Positions 166 to 36,663 are shown, numbered from the stretch's first letter. The stretch: 42,307 nt of DNA from a bacterium (GCA_043801585.1 JAZDLX010000171.1:1-42307), one strand, 5' to 3'. A program made the numbers and translations. Notes: generated by a model from the letters alone, not told the origin.

Positions 166-1173
166 TCAACTGTTCAACCCTTTGAGGTCCAGCCCTTTCA
201 GTGCTCTCAGCACGTCGTCAGGTTGAATCTCTCGCATGCATCGATGATGCCCGAGTGGGCACCGTTCCGTTCCATGTGCCGAACACGGCCGACACCAGAG
301 GTTTCGCTGCAGCACCGTCGCCTTGGCACGGAACGGAAAGAAGCCAAACTCCTCCACTGTGGGACCGTAGATCGCCACCAGCGGTGTGGAAACTGCAACC
401 GCCATGTGCATCGGTCCCGTGTCGCCCGAAATAACAGCTTTTGACAGCGTAAGGATCGCGGCCATCTCAAGAAGAGTCGTCTCTCCGGTCAGGTCAAGAT
501 ACGAACCTCGTTCATCGAGGGCTTTTGCCAGCTCCGAAGGCGTCTCGCCCTTCATTCCAAGCACAATGAGATGAAGCCGGGGAGGAAACGATCTCACCAA
601 CTCCGCCCAGTACGATCCCGGCCAACATTTTGTCGCATGTTTTGCGCCAGGGATCAGCGCAACCGATCCTTTCAGCTCGTTGCCCCACCGTTGGCATACC
701 TCGGTCTTCATCTCCACCGGCACGTTCAACGCGAGTGAGCTACCGTCATCCATCACGCGCATCGGCGTCATCTGACGCAGCATCCGCAGGGGCACCGGAG
801 AAAATTTGCCCATCGGGAGTTTCGTGACGATTCGAAGGGTGCGCCGAAATCGCGGAGGAGTATCAATGGCCGAACGGACCGGTTTCAACCTGCGGAGCAG
901 TTTATAACTTCGTGCAGATCCCTGGAGATCCACAACCAGATCCCAGGGTCCTTCCCACGCGATCCTGATCACGTCCTGAGCGAATTTCGGTCCGCGGCGT
1001 TCGATCACCGCTACACGATCCACACCCGGCAAGGCCGCCGCGATATCGCTGTAAACCCGGGTCGTGATATACGTCAATTCCGCCTCAGGAAAGGCGTTGC
1101 GCAACCCACGAACCGCTGGCCCGGTGCAGAGAATGTCGCCCAGAGAACTGAATCGTATGATTGCAATACGCAC
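166..1173 (-). CDS. Glycosyltransferase family 9 (LPS heptosyltransferase, RfaF/WaaF-like)
   Basis: IIRFSSLGDI N-terminus, DLQG, PGAKHATKCW, DTGPMHMAVA, and C-terminal CRPCS...CPLGHHRCM motifs. Confidence 0.9.
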   Translation of the reverse strand: MRIAIIRFSSLGDILCTGPAVRGLRNAFPEAELTYITTRVYSDIAAALPGVDRVAVIERRGPKFAQDVIRIAWEGPWDLVVDLQGSARSYKLLRRLKPVRSAIDTPPRFRRTLRIVTKLPMGKFSPVPLRMLRQMTPMRVMDDGSSLALNVPVEMKTEVCQRWGNELKGSVALIPGAKHATKCWPGSYWAELVRSFPPRLHLIVLGMKGETPSELAKALDERGSYLDLTGETTLLEMAAILTLSKAVISGDTGPMHMAVAVSTPLVAIYGPTVEEFGFFPFRAKATVLQRNLWCRPCSAHGTERCPLGHHRCMREIQPDDVLRALKGLDLKGLNS

Positions 1174-16610: not shown

Positions 16611-16682
16611 GCCCGGTTCGTCTAGCGGTTAGGACGCTGGCCTCTCACGCCGGTAACAGGGGTTCGATTCCCCTACCGGGTA
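16611..16682 (+). tRNA. tRNA-Glu (anticodon CTC); CCA not encoded
   Basis: Cloverleaf: acceptor GCCCGGT/ACCGGGT, D arm, anticodon arm CTGGC-CTCTCAC-GCCGG, T arm AGGGG-TTCGATT-CCCCT. Confidence 0.96.
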
Positions 16683-16733: not shown

Positions 16734-17045
16734 GAAACCCGGCTGACGGAGCAGCCGGGCCACACAGGAAATTTATAACGGAACACAACAGGGTGGCCCG
16801 AGATGTGGACCGAAGGTCCATTTCCCGGGTTTCCTGTTGTAGCATTCCATGAATTGGAACCCGTCCTGCCGCGTTCCTGCTGCCCCCTTCTCCCTGACCC
16901 CTCTGCAGTGACAGCTACAGGGTGGCCCGGGATGTGGGCCGAAAGTCCATTTCCCGGGATTCCCGTTGTGACCTTGCTGGAATCGGAACCCGTCCTGCCG
17001 TCTTCCTGCTGCCTCCTTCTCCCGAACCCTTCTGGAAATGACAAC
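16734..17045. repeat. Cluster of GTGGCCCGR...CCGGGWTTC hairpin units: one inverted copy (16734-16763) plus two tandem 129-bp units (starting 16788 and 16917)
   Basis: Manual alignment shows 19 mismatches over the first 120 nt of the two units; each unit begins with a long hairpin. Confidence 0.85.
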
Positions 17046-17091
17046 GGAGGAGTACTGGACGGCACGGCGGCCGCATCACCGCGAAAAAGCG

Positions 17092-18369
17092 TCAATCGGC
17101 GAGCAATGGCAACGCCAGAGGCGGACCTTCCACATCCGGCCAAGACGCGATCTCGCCAAGAACTTCCGCCAGTACATTCCGTGCGACAGGGTGAGTGAGA
17201 ATCCGAACCCGCCCACTCTGCACCGATCCTTTCGGGATGTGAGCGTTGGCATGAGTGATCGAGATGCCAGCCTCTCCGAGGGCGCTGGTGATCCGCCCGA
17301 TCACCCCAGGCTTGTCTACGATCACAAAACGCAGGTAATGGCGCAACTCCGGAGAACTGATCCGGGCTCTCTCGGTACGGATACGGATGCTCGGAAAGAA
17401 ACCCCGACTGCCTCCAATATCAACAACATCCGAAAGCACTCCACTCGCAGTGGGCATTGCACCCGCACCCTTCCCATAGTAGAGGATGTCCCCGACCGCG
17501 TCTCCGCGCAGGAGGACGGCATTGTTTTCATCATGGACACTGGCAAGGGGATGATCCAGCGGCACCAGGGTCGGATGGACACGGAGATCGAGGATGCCGT
17601 TGTCACCGTTCCTCGCTCCATACGCCAGCATTTTAATCGTGTATCCATACTCACGGGCGGCGTGCTCGTCGTCCGTCTCGATGGCGTCGATACCGAGACA
17701 GGGGATCTGTTCGGGTACGACCTTTGCAGAAAAGGCGATGGAAGCGAGAATCGTGAGTTTCTGAGCGACATCGGCGCCTGAAACATCCGCCGCAGGATCG
17801 GGTTCGGCGAAACCGAGGCGCTGAGCCTGTTGCAGCGCCTCCCCATAGGAAAGCCCCTCCCCCATCCTTGTCAGGATGTAATTCGTCGTTCCATTGACAA
17901 TCCCACAAAACGCTTCGATGCGGTTAGCGACCAATCCCTCCATCAGCGAACGGATGAGGGGAATTCCGGCGCAGACAGCCGCCTCGAATCCGACGTACCG
18001 TTTGGTCTTTTCACCGAGGAGCAGGATCTCCTCACCGTGCTCCGCCATCAGTCTTTTGTTTGCCGTGACGACATGCTTGCCCCGGCGCAACGCTCCGGTG
18101 ACAAGGGAATAAGCGGGGTCAAGGCCGCCGAGCAGTTCGACGACAATCTCGACCCGGTCATCACCAAGAACCGCCTCGAGATCGGTGGTCAGTTCAATAT
18201 CCTGGACGTCCCGTTGTTTCTTCGTGTCCCGGACCAGCGCCTTGACGATCCTGAAACGTTTCCCGGATTTTCGCTCGATAACGTCGCCGTTCTGGCGCAG
18301 CAGTTTTACCACACCCTGGGCAACATTTCCCAAACCGAGTAGCCCGAGTCCAATGGTTTCGGCACTCAT
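17092..18369 (-). CDS. hom: Homoserine dehydrogenase with C-terminal ACT domain
   Basis: GLLGLGNV, HVVTANK, FEAAVCAGIP, GIVNGTTNYIL, GFAEPDP, GKGAGAMPTAS, DKPGVIG (ACT). Confidence 0.96.
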   Translation of the reverse strand: MSAETIGLGLLGLGNVAQGVVKLLRQNGDVIERKSGKRFRIVKALVRDTKKQRDVQDIELTTDLEAVLGDDRVEIVVELLGGLDPAYSLVTGALRRGKHVVTANKRLMAEHGEEILLLGEKTKRYVGFEAAVCAGIPLIRSLMEGLVANRIEAFCGIVNGTTNYILTRMGEGLSYGEALQQAQRLGFAEPDPAADVSGADVAQKLTILASIAFSAKVVPEQIPCLGIDAIETDDEHAAREYGYTIKMLAYGARNGDNGILDLRVHPTLVPLDHPLASVHDENNAVLLRGDAVGDILYYGKGAGAMPTASGVLSDVVDIGGSRGFFPSIRIRTERARISSPELRHYLRFVIVDKPGVIGRITSALGEAGISITHANAHIPKGSVQSGRVRILTHPVARNVLAEVLGEIASWPDVEGPPLALPLLAD

Positions 18370-18396
18370 CCCTGACTCCCCTCCCGCACTGCCAGA

Positions 18397-19563
18397 CTAC
18401 GCCTTTGACGCCGCGGACAGCGCCGTTTTCAAATCCGCAATCAGATCCACACCGTTCTCCAGACCGCAGGAGATCCGAATCAGGCCGTCGTCAATCCCCG
18501 CACGGCGCCTTGCCTCCGGCTCCATGCTGGCGTGCGTCATCGAGGGCGGGTGCGCGATCAGGCTTTTGATCCCGCCGAGACTCTCGGCGATGGTGAAGAG
18601 TCCAAGGTTGGCAAAAAAGGCGTCGAATTGACTCTGCCCGCCTTTCAAGACGAAAGAGACCATTCCGCCAAAGTCGCTCATCTGCTTTTTCGCGATCTTG
18701 TGGTTCGGGTGGGATGGATGGCCGGGATAGTAGACGGTTTCAACAGCTTTATGTTTTTTCAGAAAGTCCGCGACAAGGTGGGCGTTTTCGCAATGACGCT
18801 GCATCCGCAGTTCCAGCGTTTTCAGTCCACGCAGCACGAGGAAGCAGTCCTGAGGTCCGGGAATCGCCCCAACTGCGTTCTGGTTGAAGCGCAGTTTGGC
18901 ACCCATCTCCTCATCGTTGGTGACCACGATACCACTGACCACGTCCGAATGGCCGTTGATGTATTTCGTTGCCGAATGGATGATGACGTCCGCACCGAGC
19001 TTCAATGGTAGCTGCAGGGCGGGAGTCGCAAAGGTGTTGTCCACGACAACCGTCACACCCTTTTGACGGGCAATTTTCGCAGCTCCAGCGAGGTCCGTGA
19101 TATTAAGCAATGGGTTGCTGGGTGATTCGAGCCAGAGCAGTCGGGTGTTCGGTTTAATCCCCTTCGTTACGTTGGCGAGATCGGTTGTGTTGACGAAGTC
19201 GAACTCGACACCGAACCGGGTAAAAATCTTTGTGAATTGCCGGTATGCGCCACCGTAGAGATCCTGCGCGGCGAGAACGTGGTCGCCGGTTTTCAACGTC
19301 AAAAGGATCGCGTTAATCGCCGCCAGCCCTGTTGCGAACGCCACGCCGATGCTGGCCTCTTCGAGGGATGCAACGGCATTTTCCAGTGCGGTGCGTGTCG
19401 GATTCTCACTGCGGCCATAGGAGAGTTGCTTTCCCTGATACTCTCGTGGATGCCCCGGAACATCCTGCGAATAGGTTGACGTCTGGTAGATCGGAAACGC
19501 CACCGCTCCGGTTGTCGGATCGTTGGGAGATCCGACATGGATCGCCTTTGTGCTGAACTGCAT
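18397..19563 (-). CDS. Cystathionine gamma-synthase / gamma-lyase family PLP enzyme (MetB-like by context)
   Basis: PIYQTSTY, YGRSENPTR, ESPSNP, VDNTFATP, HSATKYINGHSD (PLP Lys), ESLGG; AGGAGG RBS; cotranscribed with hom. Confidence 0.92.
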   Translation of the reverse strand: MQFSTKAIHVGSPNDPTTGAVAFPIYQTSTYSQDVPGHPREYQGKQLSYGRSENPTRTALENAVASLEEASIGVAFATGLAAINAILLTLKTGDHVLAAQDLYGGAYRQFTKIFTRFGVEFDFVNTTDLANVTKGIKPNTRLLWLESPSNPLLNITDLAGAAKIARQKGVTVVVDNTFATPALQLPLKLGADVIIHSATKYINGHSDVVSGIVVTNDEEMGAKLRFNQNAVGAIPGPQDCFLVLRGLKTLELRMQRHCENAHLVADFLKKHKAVETVYYPGHPSHPNHKIAKKQMSDFGGMVSFVLKGGQSQFDAFFANLGLFTIAESLGGIKSLIAHPPSMTHASMEPEARRRAGIDDGLIRISCGLENGVDLIADLKTALSAASKA

Positions 19564-19607
19564 CCTCTCCTCCTGCTGTTGAAATTCCGAGCAACACTGT
19601 CATGAAT

Positions 19608-19636
19608 AAAAAAACCCACCGGCTGTGCGGTGGGTT
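19608..19636 (-). terminator. Attenuator (intrinsic terminator) in the metB-like/hom leader
   Basis: Minus strand AACCCACCG-cacagc-CGGTGGG followed by TTTTTTT, 45 nt upstream of the start codon. Confidence 0.9.
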
Positions 19637-19661
19637 GCTGTTTCGTCCGGTTGTCCAGTCG

Positions 19662-19736
19662 CTACACGCCTCCCTCCGCACCCTCGCGGGGTCCGTACAT
19701 CTTCATCGATCCCATGATGAAAAGAGGGGTATCCAT
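19662..19736 (-). CDS. Putative Met-rich attenuator leader peptide MDTPLFIMGSMKMYGPREGAEGGV (24 aa)
   Basis: Manual translation; GGAG upstream; Met at codons 1, 8, 11 and 13; its 3' part contains a sequence complementary to the terminator 5' arm. Confidence 0.78.
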   Translation of the reverse strand: MDTPLFIMGSMKMYGPREGAEGGV

Positions 19737-19783
19737 CGATCTTCCACTCCTGCAGTTGCCGTTTCTCTGCGACTCTTCGGGAC

Positions 19784-19812
19784 AACGTAGAGGCGCGTTC
19801 AGGCGGGCGCAA
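19784..19812 (-). promoter_or_regulatory. Sigma70-type promoter for the leader-metB-like-hom transcript
   Basis: Minus strand TTGCGC-N17-TACGTT; same -35 as the tRNA promoter and same -10 as the ALDH promoter. Confidence 0.6.
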
Positions 19813-19977
19813 CTGATTTGTCTCCCGCGTCTCAACGAATACTCCGGGAGTTCTATTTGAAATGAATCATCAGCTCGTCATATACGGAGGCTGCGTCCGG
19901 CTCACGCACAAAGCGGGCGACGGGAGTATCGCCAGAACCAGTTCGCAGGTCGTACCCGAACGTCCGGATGCTATCGG

Positions 19978-21162
19978 TCACTCTCCTGACCGCAACCGCG
20001 TGGATTGTCGGGTGGTTCTGGTCGTCACTCCGTGTGAAGAACTCTCTTCCGTGTCAATGATCGCCGGAAGTACGTATTCGTGGAGGATGACTTCGGGCGG
20101 ATACGGCCGAGTGTTATACTCCTCAGCCGTGACGACGACAACGAGGTCCATCTCCCGGATGACATAGATCGCCTGCCCTCCCAGTCCCAGCGCGGCGGGC
20201 GCCCGCTGAACTCCGGAAAACTCCGTGATCGGCTCCAACCACCAGTGAAAACCGTATCCGCTCCCACTCTGAAAAAGGGTGGTGAGCTGAAACGACTGTT
20301 CCAGCCACTCCTCGGATACGATTCGCTGACCGTGATAGACGCCGTTTCCAAGAACGAGCGTTCCGATTTTCGCCATGTCCCGCGGACGGAGAGACAAACC
20401 CCATCCTCCATTGGTGATTTCGTTGGGAGTCAGACTCCAGGTCCAGTCAGTGATCTCCAGGGGTGCGAAAAGATGTTCGCTTGCGTACTGATCGGCCCGC
20501 ATGCCAACGGCTTCCTGGAAAATTGCGGACACCAGTGTCGAGACACCGCTGTTGTAGCAGAACTCGTTTCCCGGTGCGGCTGACATCGGAAGGTTCAATA
20601 CGAAGGCAACCCAATTCGAACTGTTGATCAGGAAACCTATGGGATTGTCCTCGCTGAAGTAGGGAATGCTCCATTCATCCCATTCAAATCCGGCGCGCAT
20701 CGTCAGCAGGTGACGCAATGTCAATCCGCTTTTCTGTTCGTCGTTGTCGATCAGGGATGCATACTGCGGGAGCAGAGTGGTCACGGAATCATCCACGTTT
20801 GGGAGTTTTTCGTCGTCGAAGGCCATCCCGACGAGCAAAGAGGCCACACTTTTTGTAACAGAATACACCGGGTGCGGAACATCCACCCCCCAATCGAAAC
20901 CGTACCACTCAAAGACTATTTGTTCGTGCCGCTGGATAAGGATCGAACTGATATCGCCGAGGCTTCCATCGCTGACATCCTGCTCGAGGCGGAGAAGTGC
21001 GTCTTGGTTAAATCCCAGGCTTTCAGGAACTGCAGGGATCGCGGCGTCGTGATCCACGGGGCTGCAGCTGATCACGTGAATCGTCAGTGCGATGGACAGC
21101 AGAAATACCATGAGGGTCAGGGCACGGGAAGATCGACGAAATGAAAGATTCGACGTCTTCAT
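19978..21162 (-). CDS. Serine hydrolase, beta-lactamase class C / NylB-like family, probable lipoprotein
   Basis: SVTKS (SxxK), LRHLLTMRAG, PGNEFCYNS, LRPRDMAKIG, GYGFHWW, GLGGQ; lipobox-like VISC; start uncertain. Confidence 0.88.
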   Translation of the reverse strand: MKTSNLSFRRSSRALTLMVFLLSIALTIHVISCSPVDHDAAIPAVPESLGFNQDALLRLEQDVSDGSLGDISSILIQRHEQIVFEWYGFDWGVDVPHPVYSVTKSVASLLVGMAFDDEKLPNVDDSVTTLLPQYASLIDNDEQKSGLTLRHLLTMRAGFEWDEWSIPYFSEDNPIGFLINSSNWVAFVLNLPMSAAPGNEFCYNSGVSTLVSAIFQEAVGMRADQYASEHLFAPLEITDWTWSLTPNEITNGGWGLSLRPRDMAKIGTLVLGNGVYHGQRIVSEEWLEQSFQLTTLFQSGSGYGFHWWLEPITEFSGVQRAPAALGLGGQAIYVIREMDLVVVVTAEEYNTRPYPPEVILHEYVLPAIIDTEESSSHGVTTRTTRQSTRLRSGE

Positions 21163-21531
21163 GCTGTTTCCTGATTTTTTCCAGGCCGGCTCGGACAAGT
21201 CAGAGTAGCATGTTTTTTATCGTGGAACAAGCAGTGGACTCGTAATATTCTTAACGCATCAGATGAACTGCCGATTCTCTTCCCACGTATTCCAAATAGA
21301 ATCTTACTCTTCAATCGACGGCGATGCAATTGTCCAATGAGTGGTCGACTGACGGACAAATGGTGCACGGACGAATGGACCATCTCTTAGAGGCTGCACA
21401 CCCGCAAATCTTGCAGAATAACCGGGTATTTCCATAACGTATAATTAATTAGTAATAACTTCTCTTAATTAACACATCGACTATGTTGCGTCTTATAAGG
21501 GGACTACTCGTTTATTCTCTGGTGAGGTTGT

Positions 21532-34089: not shown

Positions 34090-34659
34090 TCAGGGTGCGG
34101 CGATTCCAATCACTCCGCTGGCGACTCGAGCACCTGCCGCTCCAGTGGGTTGGCTGACGAGGTCATCCTCGCCGGCGTGGACGATCACACCCCGGCCGAT
34201 GATGGACGTTGATCCGTTCAGCTTCATCACGCTGTCGACATAATCCACCCGCCCGACTCCATCATCACCGACCACCAGGTTTCCCATATCACCCGCGTGA
34301 CGTTCTTTCGCCATCGGACCGCCATGCTTCATGCCACTCGGGTTGAAATGTCCTCCGGTCGAGGTTCCATCGGGTGCGGAAATATCACCGTACTCATGAA
34401 TATGGATTCCGTGCTTCGTCCCCGGCTGAAGGCCGTACACCTCGGCGACAACATGGACTCCGCCTTCCACCTTTACAAACGTGACCGTGCCATGCACTGC
34501 GTTGCCTTCAGTGGGAGACAACACGGCGACAGCGCGGATGAACTGCGGCATCATGCTCATCTCCCCCTGCACCATCCCCTGATCGCCCTGTCCGGCGTTA
34601 CCGATCATCGTAAAGGCCAGCAATGCAGCACCCGCCAGCAGAAATGAGATCCTTCTCAT
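34090..34659 (-). CDS. sodC: Periplasmic Cu/Zn superoxide dismutase
   Basis: Signal peptide; HGIHIHE, GGHFNP, KHGG, RHAGDMGN, IVHA, GARV ligand motifs. Confidence 0.93.
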   Translation of the reverse strand: MRRISFLLAGAALLAFTMIGNAGQGDQGMVQGEMSMMPQFIRAVAVLSPTEGNAVHGTVTFVKVEGGVHVVAEVYGLQPGTKHGIHIHEYGDISAPDGTSTGGHFNPSGMKHGGPMAKERHAGDMGNLVVGDDGVGRVDYVDSVMKLNGSTSIIGRGVIVHAGEDDLVSQPTGAAGARVASGVIGIAAP

Positions 34660-34830
34660 GGCTCCTATCCTCCAGCGTATACGGTGCCAGGATCAACCTG
34701 CTCCGTAATGTTCGGACTATCTAACAGAAGATCGAGGATCGTACAGGTTCCGGCAAGTGGAAAACCGGGCAAGCGGGTGCAAGGCGAGATGGAGACGGGA
34801 TTATGGGGCTGTCAGGAGAGTCCCACAGGT

Positions 34831-36663
34831 TCAGGTGGCGTTTACTGTTCTCAGTGCCTTGCGGGTCGCCTCTTCCGAAAGGTGGCGTTTGCGCAACCGC
34901 AGGGACGATGGTGTCACCTCCACAAGCTCGTCGTCGGCGATGAATTCCAACGCGTTTTCGAGGGAGAGAATCCGGGGAGGGTGCAGCATGTAGTTGTCAT
35001 CCGAGCCAGAGGCCCGCATGTTGGTCAGCTTTTTCTCCTTGGAAGGATTGACCCACATATCGTCCGTACGGGAGTTTTCACCCACGATCATTCCGCTGTA
35101 GAGCTCTTCACCCGGGGAGATGAACATCTGGCCCCGCTCCTGAAGGTTCTGCAGGGCGTAGGCGTTGGCTCTTCCCATACGGTCAGCAATCAGAACCCCC
35201 GACGTGCGATGCGGCACTTCGCCTGCAAAGTTGCGCCAGCCGAGGAAAATATGGTTGAGGATCGCGGTGCCCCTTGTTTCGACGAGCAGCAGGTTACGCA
35301 GTCCAATCAGGCCACGCATCGGCACTTCGAATTCGAGCCGGACCCATCCTGATGCGTGGTTGATTATCTTGATCATTTTCCCCTTGCGGGGTCCCATCGA
35401 TTGGGTGACGGTGCCGATGTGTTCCTCGGGAACGTCGAGGATCAGGTGTTCCCACGGCTCCAGCAGCGCTCCCTTTCCATCCCGGTGCATCAGCACACGC
35501 GGCTTGGAAACAGCAACCTCATACCCCTCGCGGCGCATGGTTTCGAGAAGGATCGCAAACTGCAATTCACCGCGCCCGAGAATCCGGAAGGTGTCCGCCG
35601 ATTCCGTCTCCTCGATCTTCAGGCTTGGATTCCCCTGAATCTCCTTGAAAAGACGGTCACGGAGCTGACGGCTGGTGACGAAATGACCCTCTCGCCCGGC
35701 GAAGGGGGAGGTGTTGACGCTGAAATACATCTCGAGCGAGGGCTCGTCGATGCGCAATTTTGCCAGGGGTCTCGGTGTCTCCGGATCGGTGAGGGTCCAC
35801 CCGAGCTGGATACCCTCGATCCCGGCAATGGCGACGATGTCCCCCGGTTCGGCCCGCGAGATCTCGTGGCGTTTCAGTCCCTGAAAGCCGTAGAGCATGG
35901 TCACCTTCGCCTTTTCTCCACCCTCACCACCCGTCATCAGCACCCAATCGCCGACGTTCAGCACGCCGTTGGTTACACGTCCGATGCCGATCCGCCCGAG
36001 GTAATCGCTGTAATCCAGCGTGGTAATCTGGAGCTGCAGGGGATGTCCTTCCTCATAGATCGGCGCCGGTACCTTTTCGAGAATCATATTGAATAAAGGG
36101 CGCAGGTCTGTCCCGGGGACGTTGATATCCGTCGTTGCCGTGCCCTGTTTCGCCACGGTGTAGAGAATCGGAAAATTGCACTGCTCTTCGCTGGCGTCCA
36201 GATCGAGGAACAATTCGAGCACCTCGTCGACGACTTCGCTGATCCGTGCATCCGGGCGGTCGATCTTGTTGATGACGACAATCGGGCTGAGACCGTTCGC
36301 CAGGGCGTTCGAGAGTACATAACGCGTCTGGGGAAGCGGTCCCTCCGATGCGTCAACCAGCAGCAGGCAGCCATCGACCATCTTGAGGATCCGCTGCACC
36401 TCGCCCCCAAAGTCAGCGTGTCCGGGCGTATCCACGATATTGATCGTCGTTCCCAGGTAGGGAACGGCGGTGTTTTTCGCCATGATCGTAATGCCTTTTT
36501 CGCGCTCGAGGTCAAGACCGTCAAGGGCACGCTCGGCGACGTATTCGTTATCACGGAACAGGCCTGACTGATGCAGCATGGCGTCAACAAGTGTCGTCTT
36601 GCCGTGGTCGACATGGGCAATGATCGCAATGTTTCGAACGTTGTCACGGGTACGAATGGACAT
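34831..36663 (-). CDS. typA: Translational GTPase TypA/BipA
   Basis: [42 protein letters not shown]...[17 protein letters not shown]. Confidence 0.98.

Follow-up and report, generated by a model that had tools for sequence, protein, structure and literature searches.

A probable methionine-codon leader-peptide attenuator upstream of a cystathionine gamma-synthase-family gene and hom in an uncultured bacterium

Introduction

Methionine genes are usually described under the control of SAM riboswitches, T-boxes, or the proteins MetJ and MetR. Textbooks present leader-peptide attenuation for Trp, His, Leu, Thr, Phe and Ile/Val, and leave Met out; its classical representatives are the E. coli transcription attenuators trpL, hisL, leuL, pheL and ilvL. 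The locus described here raises the question of whether a short ORF carrying a cluster of Met codons can serve as such a device upstream of an operon of a cystathionine gamma-synthase-family gene and hom. It lies in a window (the whole stretch of DNA analysed) of 42,307 nt from an uncultured assembly, G000, of 3.28 Mb in 225 contigs. An initial annotation, made from the sequence alone, had read positions 19,608 to 19,812 as a complete methionine-sensing attenuator on the minus strand.

Results

The leader and the genes around it

The leader elements, the two genes that they would control and the gene upstream are as follows, in window coordinates.

21198-19978, minus strand (same strand as the operon): upstream gene, serine-hydrolase-like
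19784..19812, minus strand: proposed promoter, TTGCGC (19812-19807), 17-nt spacer and TACGTT (19789-19784), hexamers read in the sequence
19747..19750, minus strand: GGAG, likely Shine-Dalgarno sequence of the leader ORF, 10 nt 5′ of its ATG
19662..19736, minus strand: predicted leader ORF MDTPLFIMGSMKMYGPREGAEGGV, 24 codons and a stop, homologous to the leader of the related locus L111
19698..19715, minus strand: putative sensing block, Met codons 8, 11 and 13 (19715-19713, 19706-19704 and 19700-19698), read in the sequence and kept in L111
19672..19681, minus strand: candidate antiterminator 5′ strand GUGCGGAGGG (DNA GTGCGGAGGG), codons 19-22
19647..19658, minus strand: small spacer hairpin CUGG-ACAA-CCGG between stop codon and terminator, from predicted folds
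19608..19636, minus strand: intrinsic terminator with a 9-bp stem, 6-nt loop and T7 run, from a terminator scan
18397..19563, minus strand: first regulated gene, a PLP enzyme of the cystathionine gamma-synthase/lyase family, 388 aa, from an NCBIfam profile match
17092..18369, minus strand: second gene, homoserine dehydrogenase (hom), 425 aa (NF004976, 446 bits against a cut-off of 205)

The leader ORF is present on the minus strand as the initial annotation had it, with three Met within six codons, and ends 98 nt 5′ of the operon ATG. The terminator hairpin with its U7 and the operon start at 19563 were likewise found where they had been placed, and the terminator scan lists the hairpin: AACCCACCG/CACAGC/CGGTGGGTT at 19636-19613, with nine pairs (six of them G-C), a loop of 6, a predicted hairpin energy of -15.1 kcal/mol and a T run that reaches 19608. 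It starts 25 nt past the leader stop codon. Reading the sequence also confirmed the complementarity of the ORF tail to the 5′ arm and loop of the terminator: GTGCGGAGGG (19681-19672) and CCCACCGCAC (19634-19625) are complementary at 9/10 positions, with a single A/A mismatch. With its end 7 nt short of the stop codon, the candidate antiterminator strand would be covered by a terminating ribosome.

Two other parts of the initial description fared less well. The promoter hexamers and their spacing do exist at 19812-19784, but a sigma-70 promoter scan of 17000-21500 gave 0 sites at its thresholds, and this stretch aligns poorly with the closest relative, L111, where it is not conserved. A look for RNA or DNA sequencing runs spanning 18900-20100 returned none. 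Thr, Ile and Lys codons had been listed as further aspartate-family codons; the window leader has one of each, and we attach no importance to them. It is only in certain relatives (L004 and L202, see below) that Thr codons abound.

The top NCBIfam match of the first gene is cystathionine gamma-synthase (NF005871), at 498 bits against a cut-off of 513, and no equivalog cut-off was reached among the 25 best of 54 NCBIfam families. An ORF of length similar to hom (423-441 aa; judged by length alone) lies 3′ of the orthologue in L002, L004, L107 and L202. No MetX (homoserine O-acetyltransferase, TIGR01392) was found over cut-off in G000, G001, G006, G009 or G011, where the best score was 22 bits.

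Conservation of the leader in relatives

The phylum is represented by 79 genomes in the collection, 5 of which have an orthologue of the first gene at E <= 1e-140, and the order by 16, of which 4 have one. The same-genus genome G001 has a paralogue only. In a FastTree phylogeny of 177 proteins, L001 (the window), L111, L002, L004, L113 and L031 form one clade with a support of 98. A Met-rich uORF precedes the gene in 5/6 members of this nearest-orthologue clade, and a terminator was also found in 4 of those 5. The leaders of the relatives, together with that of a locus from another family of the phylum (L202), are listed here.

L111 (metagenome, 78% protein identity): leader MWMMSMQMSGLTIVGAEGGV and stop, nearly identical terminator
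L002 (genome G006): leaders MMMRMQTTGVSRV and MSYMMMYMMMRCRVVDT, each with a stop, at 1157-1290 and 1308-1480, in tandem, each with its own terminator
L004 (genome G011): leaders MIQTTIMMMTMMTPTTVGAGRACLN and MGMSMMMRGLLRLPTRL, each with a stop, at 1152-1300 and 1363-1485, in tandem, each with its own terminator
L113: leader ...NMVLGMMTMWRTS..., no terminator found between leader and gene
L202 (genome G044, another family of the phylum): Thr/Met leader VIATTTSMRKLSQMTPVRVGS and stop, followed by a terminator, the gene and a hom-sized ORF (423 aa)

At L031/L003 (genome G009) and at L107 the gene is present and no Met leader was found upstream. Alignment of the orthologous upstream regions, a check proposed in the initial annotation, bore out the conservation expected there: the in-frame Met clusters and the terminators are kept, while the rest of the leader has diverged. 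The first leader of L004 (L004a) carries six Thr codons besides its Met codons, which hints at a possible combined Met/Thr sensing for an operon with hom.

When the window is aligned with L111, the Met codons are kept 3/3, whereas the residue differs at 4/6 of the neighbouring codons. Conservation also covers the uORF tail (GAEGGV) and the terminator. Between stop codon and terminator the L111 sequence is a different one, yet it contains a small hairpin there too (CGCG-AUUUUUA-CGCG). Within the antiterminator, the pair U19680-A19626 is C-G in L111. This is one compensatory change, and it is not explained by the terminator, because A19626 sits in the terminator loop. The outermost antiterminator pair, G19681-C19625, is lost in L111.

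We then counted Met-rich uORFs, defined as ORFs of 5-45 aa that start with ATG, lie at most 300 nt upstream and have 3 or more internal Met within 8 residues. They were found on the sense strand upstream at 20/172 usable loci, against 1/172 in antisense, 0/172 within genes and, over 50 rounds of mononucleotide shuffling, 0.34 on average and at most 2; as related loci are kin and not independent trials, these counts overstate independence. Counted past the start codon, the ATG triplets of the seven clade leaders are distributed 31, 1 and 0 by frame, a count that is partly circular since the ORFs were chosen for in-frame Met.

Some upstream matches were discarded. The Met-rich matches at L022 and L027 were treated as false positives, lying inside the upstream coding region, from 200 nt 5′ of the start. 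More generally, the paralogues of the same family (L019, L021, L022 and L024-L027, 44-46% identical) lie directly 3′ of an upstream coding region. The Saprospiraceae hairpins upstream in L040-L067 are not leaders either: they adjoin the upstream coding region and are apparently its terminator.

Ribosome position and the predicted fold of the leader

The arrangement suggests the following switch. With plentiful Met-tRNA, the ribosome would run to the stop codon and cover the antiterminator strand 19681-19672; with the strand covered, the terminator would form and transcription would stop before the operon. With scarce Met-tRNA, the ribosome would stall at codon 8, 11 or 13, the free antiterminator strand would pair with 19634-19625 and the terminator could not form, so that the gamma-synthase-family gene and hom would be transcribed. 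In the complete absence of a ribosome the fold would mostly favour termination. We infer from this layout the translation of the leader, the stalling at AUG when Met-tRNA is short and the resulting rise in read-through.

The effect of ribosome position was modelled by masking everything up to 12 nt beyond the first nucleotide of the codon in the A site and folding what remained. For the window, the predicted probability of the terminator was 0.68 without ribosome; with Met codon 8, 11 or 13 in the A site it fell to 0.00, and a ribosome at the stop codon raised it to 1.00. In the stalled-ribosome folds the antiterminator strand 19681-19672 was predicted to pair. In this model, the window thus behaves as the initial annotation had proposed, a stall freeing the antiterminator and a ribosome at the stop codon masking it. 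For L002a the corresponding predicted values were 0.09 without ribosome, 0.00-0.01 stalled and 0.27 at the stop. The four remaining elements (L111, L002b, L004a and L004b) were predicted to adopt the terminator fold in every ribosome state at equilibrium when the full terminator is present, and antitermination in these would need a kinetic argument. As a kinetic proxy, the RNA was folded without the 3′ arm of the terminator, mimicking the moment before this arm is made. The 5′ arm was then predicted to be paired at 0.57-0.86 with a stalled ribosome and at 0.12-0.43 with the ribosome at the stop, the direction being the same in 6/6 elements.

How specific is this pairing? Shuffled uORF tails sequester the 5′ arm about equally (98/300 for the window and 127/300 for L111; 98, 127, 95, 25, 29 and 8 of 300 over the six elements), so this measure, which is largely explained by G-rich composition, has no significance. 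Duplex energy is a different measure. The antiterminator duplex of the window has an energy of -17.5 kcal/mol, a value reached by 57/1000 shuffles, and for the tail against the 5′ arm plus loop the shuffles reaching the natural value number 57, 91, 79, 133, 54 and 22 of 1000 in the six elements. Summed over the six, the energy is -91.0 against -66.0 +/- 6.4 in shuffles, and 0/1000 reach it. The antiterminator complementarity is therefore weak per element taken singly and beyond shuffles when summed. In addition, the 5′ arm has its best partner in the uORF tail in 6/6 elements. This partner strand ends no earlier than 15 nt before the stop codon and no later than 2 nt inside it, so that in every element it would be covered by a ribosome terminating there.

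Short Met-rich ORFs and attenuators in the same genome

Only 6 short ORFs of the 3.28-Mb assembly have both 3 or more internal Met in 8 residues and a terminator no more than 130 nt away. Without requiring a terminator, 9 Met-rich short ORFs are intergenic, and the present leader is the only one of these that was found 5′ of a methionine gene. The whole-leader fold energy is unremarkable (z = -1.28; 21/200 shuffles fold equally well). The signals of the window alone (its three Met codons, the 57/1000 duplex and this fold z) are modest.

An Ile/Met-rich short ORF on contig C171 is no leader, as it lies inside a 627-aa ORF, and a Met-rich ORF on contig C131 was rejected because there is no plausible gene downstream on the same strand. 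Met/His-rich short ORFs followed by a terminator occur on contig C21 (16490-16576, minus strand; …KMGSMKSMDHSGHRH) and on contig C11 (1593-1709, plus strand; …HPRWGMHRGMMGARS…). They may encode small metal-binding peptides rather than leaders.

The same genome holds another element of attenuator type. On contig C16, at 34502-34720 on the plus strand, a leader ORF ...STAWWWYYARPVG... (WWWYY) is followed by a strong terminator, AACGCCCACCGG/AATTT/CCGGTGGGCGTT and a T run, and the leader ORF contains a copy of the terminator 3′ arm. The gene that comes next, at 34740-35771, is a DAHP synthase gene (NF006421, 476 bits against a cut-off of 335). This element is likely, from its sequence, a Trp/Tyr-sensing attenuator. 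A WWWYY leader and terminator 5′ of a DAHP synthase gene imply that the lineage uses the attenuation device elsewhere.

Related Met leaders in other lineages

Met leaders are also carried by many metagenome loci of the neighbouring clades. A nearly invariant leader, ...MGRMVMRRPGADA and stop, was found at 11 loci forming one clade with a support of 98: L032 (a Thermoanaerobaculia assembly), L163, L166, L167, L169, L173, L174, L175, L178, L182 and L190. These leaders stand ~80-270 nt 5′ of the gene start, most of them without terminator. A CCCGGG-containing hairpin begins two codons past the last Met; the stop codon lies in the loop of this CCCGGG...CCCGGG hairpin, which is followed by UCCCUCC. 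In L032, L166 and L174, UCCCUCC can pair with the ribosome-binding site GGAGGGGA.

Other leaders of these neighbouring clades end in ...M[SA]MR[RC]PG.... Those of L143, L146, L147, L151 and L161, ...M-S-M-R-[RC]-P-G-T-x-A-C-P..., have two Met codons and lie ~90-170 nt 5′ of the gene. At the ribosome-binding site of these loci, CUGGAGC or CCGGAGCG has a pairing partner in an upstream CGCUCCAG or CGCUCCGG, and this anti-Shine-Dalgarno/Shine-Dalgarno pair covaries by eye, being A-U in L146 and G-C in L147. For the terminator-less leaders of MRRPG type, no consistent on/off logic could be derived.

The MGSMKMYGP of the window resembles MGRMVMRRP, and common descent is possible from this likeness. 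Taken together, the sequences point to a wider Met-leader family in at least two phyla. The window leader may be one branch of a large family of Met-codon leaders that spans phyla and is essentially undescribed, with a core of the form M-x-M then R-[R/C]-P-G, or MGxMxM. Its members would precede genes of the cystathionine gamma-synthase family in Armatimonadota, Acidobacteriota (L032) and many contigs from soil and sediment. Some would work through terminators and others through helices hiding the Shine-Dalgarno sequence, and they would stand where other lineages use SAM riboswitches. We put this proposal forward tentatively, at somewhat less than an even chance. As the wider family has no Rfam model, genome annotation misses it.

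Known RNA families and alternative explanations

The initial annotation had seen neither a SAM-I nor a T-box consensus in the leader, and covariance scans with Rfam, strict and permissive, agree with it. At gathering thresholds the whole window gave a single match, with no SAM riboswitch and no T-box: a tRNA gene (RF00005, 60.4 bits) at 16611-16682 on the plus strand, ~400 nt past the hom 3′ end and opposite in strand to the operon. A permissive scan of 19500-19990, up to E = 10, returned four weak matches, none of them SAM or T-box. The best was Phe_leader (RF01859), with 23.2 bits against a cut-off of 55 and E = 0.14; the letters that match in its alignment fall chiefly in the stem and U run of the terminator, with others in the AUG region. 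These scans rule out a SAM riboswitch, a T-box or another Rfam family as the identity of the leader. The 20 neighbouring loci without a clear Met uORF gave no Rfam match. SAM-I (RF00162) was not found in G000, G001, G006, G009 and G011 among the 150 of 239-338 first-look candidates that were scored, nor in the genomes holding L107, L032 and L031.

Among 44 other related loci, the only Rfam match bearing on the leader is that of L133, where a SAM-I riboswitch (456-567, plus strand; 79.3 bits) and a terminator precede a 51%-identical orthologue. A SAM-I riboswitch there fits a regulatory role for the position that the window leader occupies. The two share their place, the use of a terminator and the regulatory purpose; the SAM-I aptamer senses SAM directly, whereas the window has no match to it. 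L133 also lends some colour to the idea that the window leader is itself a metabolite-binding riboswitch of an unknown class (for SAM or methionine, for example), its AUG triplets being aptamer parts and not codons, and so does the wider ...MGRMVMRRPGADA group, which is highly conserved in nucleotides including third codon positions (CCG GGC, for example). We consider such a riboswitch improbable. Besides the lack of any Rfam match outside L133, what the window and L111 both keep is limited to Met codons, uORF tail and terminator, and the 45-nt spacer differs; the number and spacing of the AUG triplets vary among relatives, yet these triplets stay in a single frame of an ORF bounded by a start and a stop codon; and this stop codon stays from 15 nt downstream of the antiterminator strand to 2 nt inside it.

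We attach a similarly low probability to a uORF and terminator that report general translation capacity or stress, not methionine specifically. The window has only three Met codons, Thr codons are mixed in at L004a and L202, and any slowing of the ribosome upstream of codon 14 has the same structural effect in the model. Met is nevertheless the sole residue consistently enriched across relatives, the Met codons are what the window and L111 conserve, and the controlled genes make methionine precursors.

More improbable still is an RNA-binding protein that recognises the spaced AUG triplets in a TRAP-like manner and controls the terminator, with translation irrelevant. The triplets do repeat at short spacing, but their spacers are always multiples of three and they lie within an ORF behind GGAG; the conserved position of the stop relative to the antiterminator is not needed by a protein model. 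Least probable of all is a hairpin that merely ends the transcript of the upstream serine-hydrolase-like gene, with a fortuitous short ORF: that gene is on the same strand and no separate terminator was found for it, but the hairpin is ~340 nt past its stop codon, uORF and terminator persist in relatives whose upstream genes differ, in two cases as tandem units, and the sense strand has far more Met-rich uORFs than the controls have.

Discussion

The sequence of the leader and its relatives and the folding models argue with good probability for a leader-peptide transcription attenuator that likely senses charged methionyl-tRNA, a response to methionine being deduced from the codons. The window leader is likely a rarely described version of the classic trp-type attenuator. 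It has in common with the E. coli attenuators a short leader ORF, a cluster of end-product codons and an intrinsic terminator, and its candidate antiterminator would likewise overlap the terminator, with ribosome position as the switch. It differs from them in its sensing codons, which are AUG, in having no sequence relation to any Rfam leader family, in its phylum, apparently Armatimonadota, and in an anti-antiterminator (1:2) hairpin that is weakly predicted. In Gammaproteobacteria, thrL carries Thr and Ile codons and controls thrABC. This too is leader-peptide attenuation of an operon with homoserine dehydrogenase activity, and L004a and L202 mix Thr and Met codons; in the window, however, Met codons would control a gamma-synthase-family gene together with hom.

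The mycobacterial polycysteine attenuators are not known to have an intrinsic terminator. They are leaderless short ORFs where, as the accessible part of the preprint describes, a sulfur amino acid is sensed through uORF codons (bioRxiv 10.1101/834739); the ribosome would sense a sulfur amino acid in the window also, the codons of the mycobacterial ORFs being Cys and these ORFs leaderless. In Streptomyces lividans TK24, a 'metL' 5′ of metNIQ is annotated, in the part of that paper at hand, as a methionine-dependent leader peptide, at the level of annotation only; the peptide ends in ...ARCMCRRMCAF, is leaderless, and its authors found no typical terminator (PMC8079986). Its Met codons are followed by Arg codons, as in many of the leaders found here; it differs in standing 5′ of a transporter operon, leaderless and without a typical terminator, and is set beside the window by description, not homology. 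Similarly, the consulted part of a Deinococcus deserti study gives Deide_09379, 5′ of the Met-tRNA ligase gene, as an annotated Met leader peptide with proposed attenuation, again as annotation only (PMC4007540). Both this and the window are Met-related leaders, compared here by description, the D. deserti one preceding a tRNA ligase gene.

A full-text literature search, thin on subscription journals, found no functional study of a Met-codon attenuator, and the accessible parts of three attenuator surveys list none for methionine (PMC2965389, PMC1262725, PMC11109978). The initial annotation had called the element possibly undescribed. This holds for the lineage and for the operon; the idea itself had already been annotated in S. 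lividans and D. deserti.

A conserved Met-codon attenuator would mean that methionine supply is read as charged tRNA, a signal other than SAM. It would also help to assign the ambiguous gamma-synthase-family gene to methionine synthesis. If the cross-phylum family of Met leaders proposed above is real, many bacteria would gauge methionine via tRNA charging, not SAM, and the near-invariant MRRPG tail might even serve to arrest ribosomes from within the nascent peptide.
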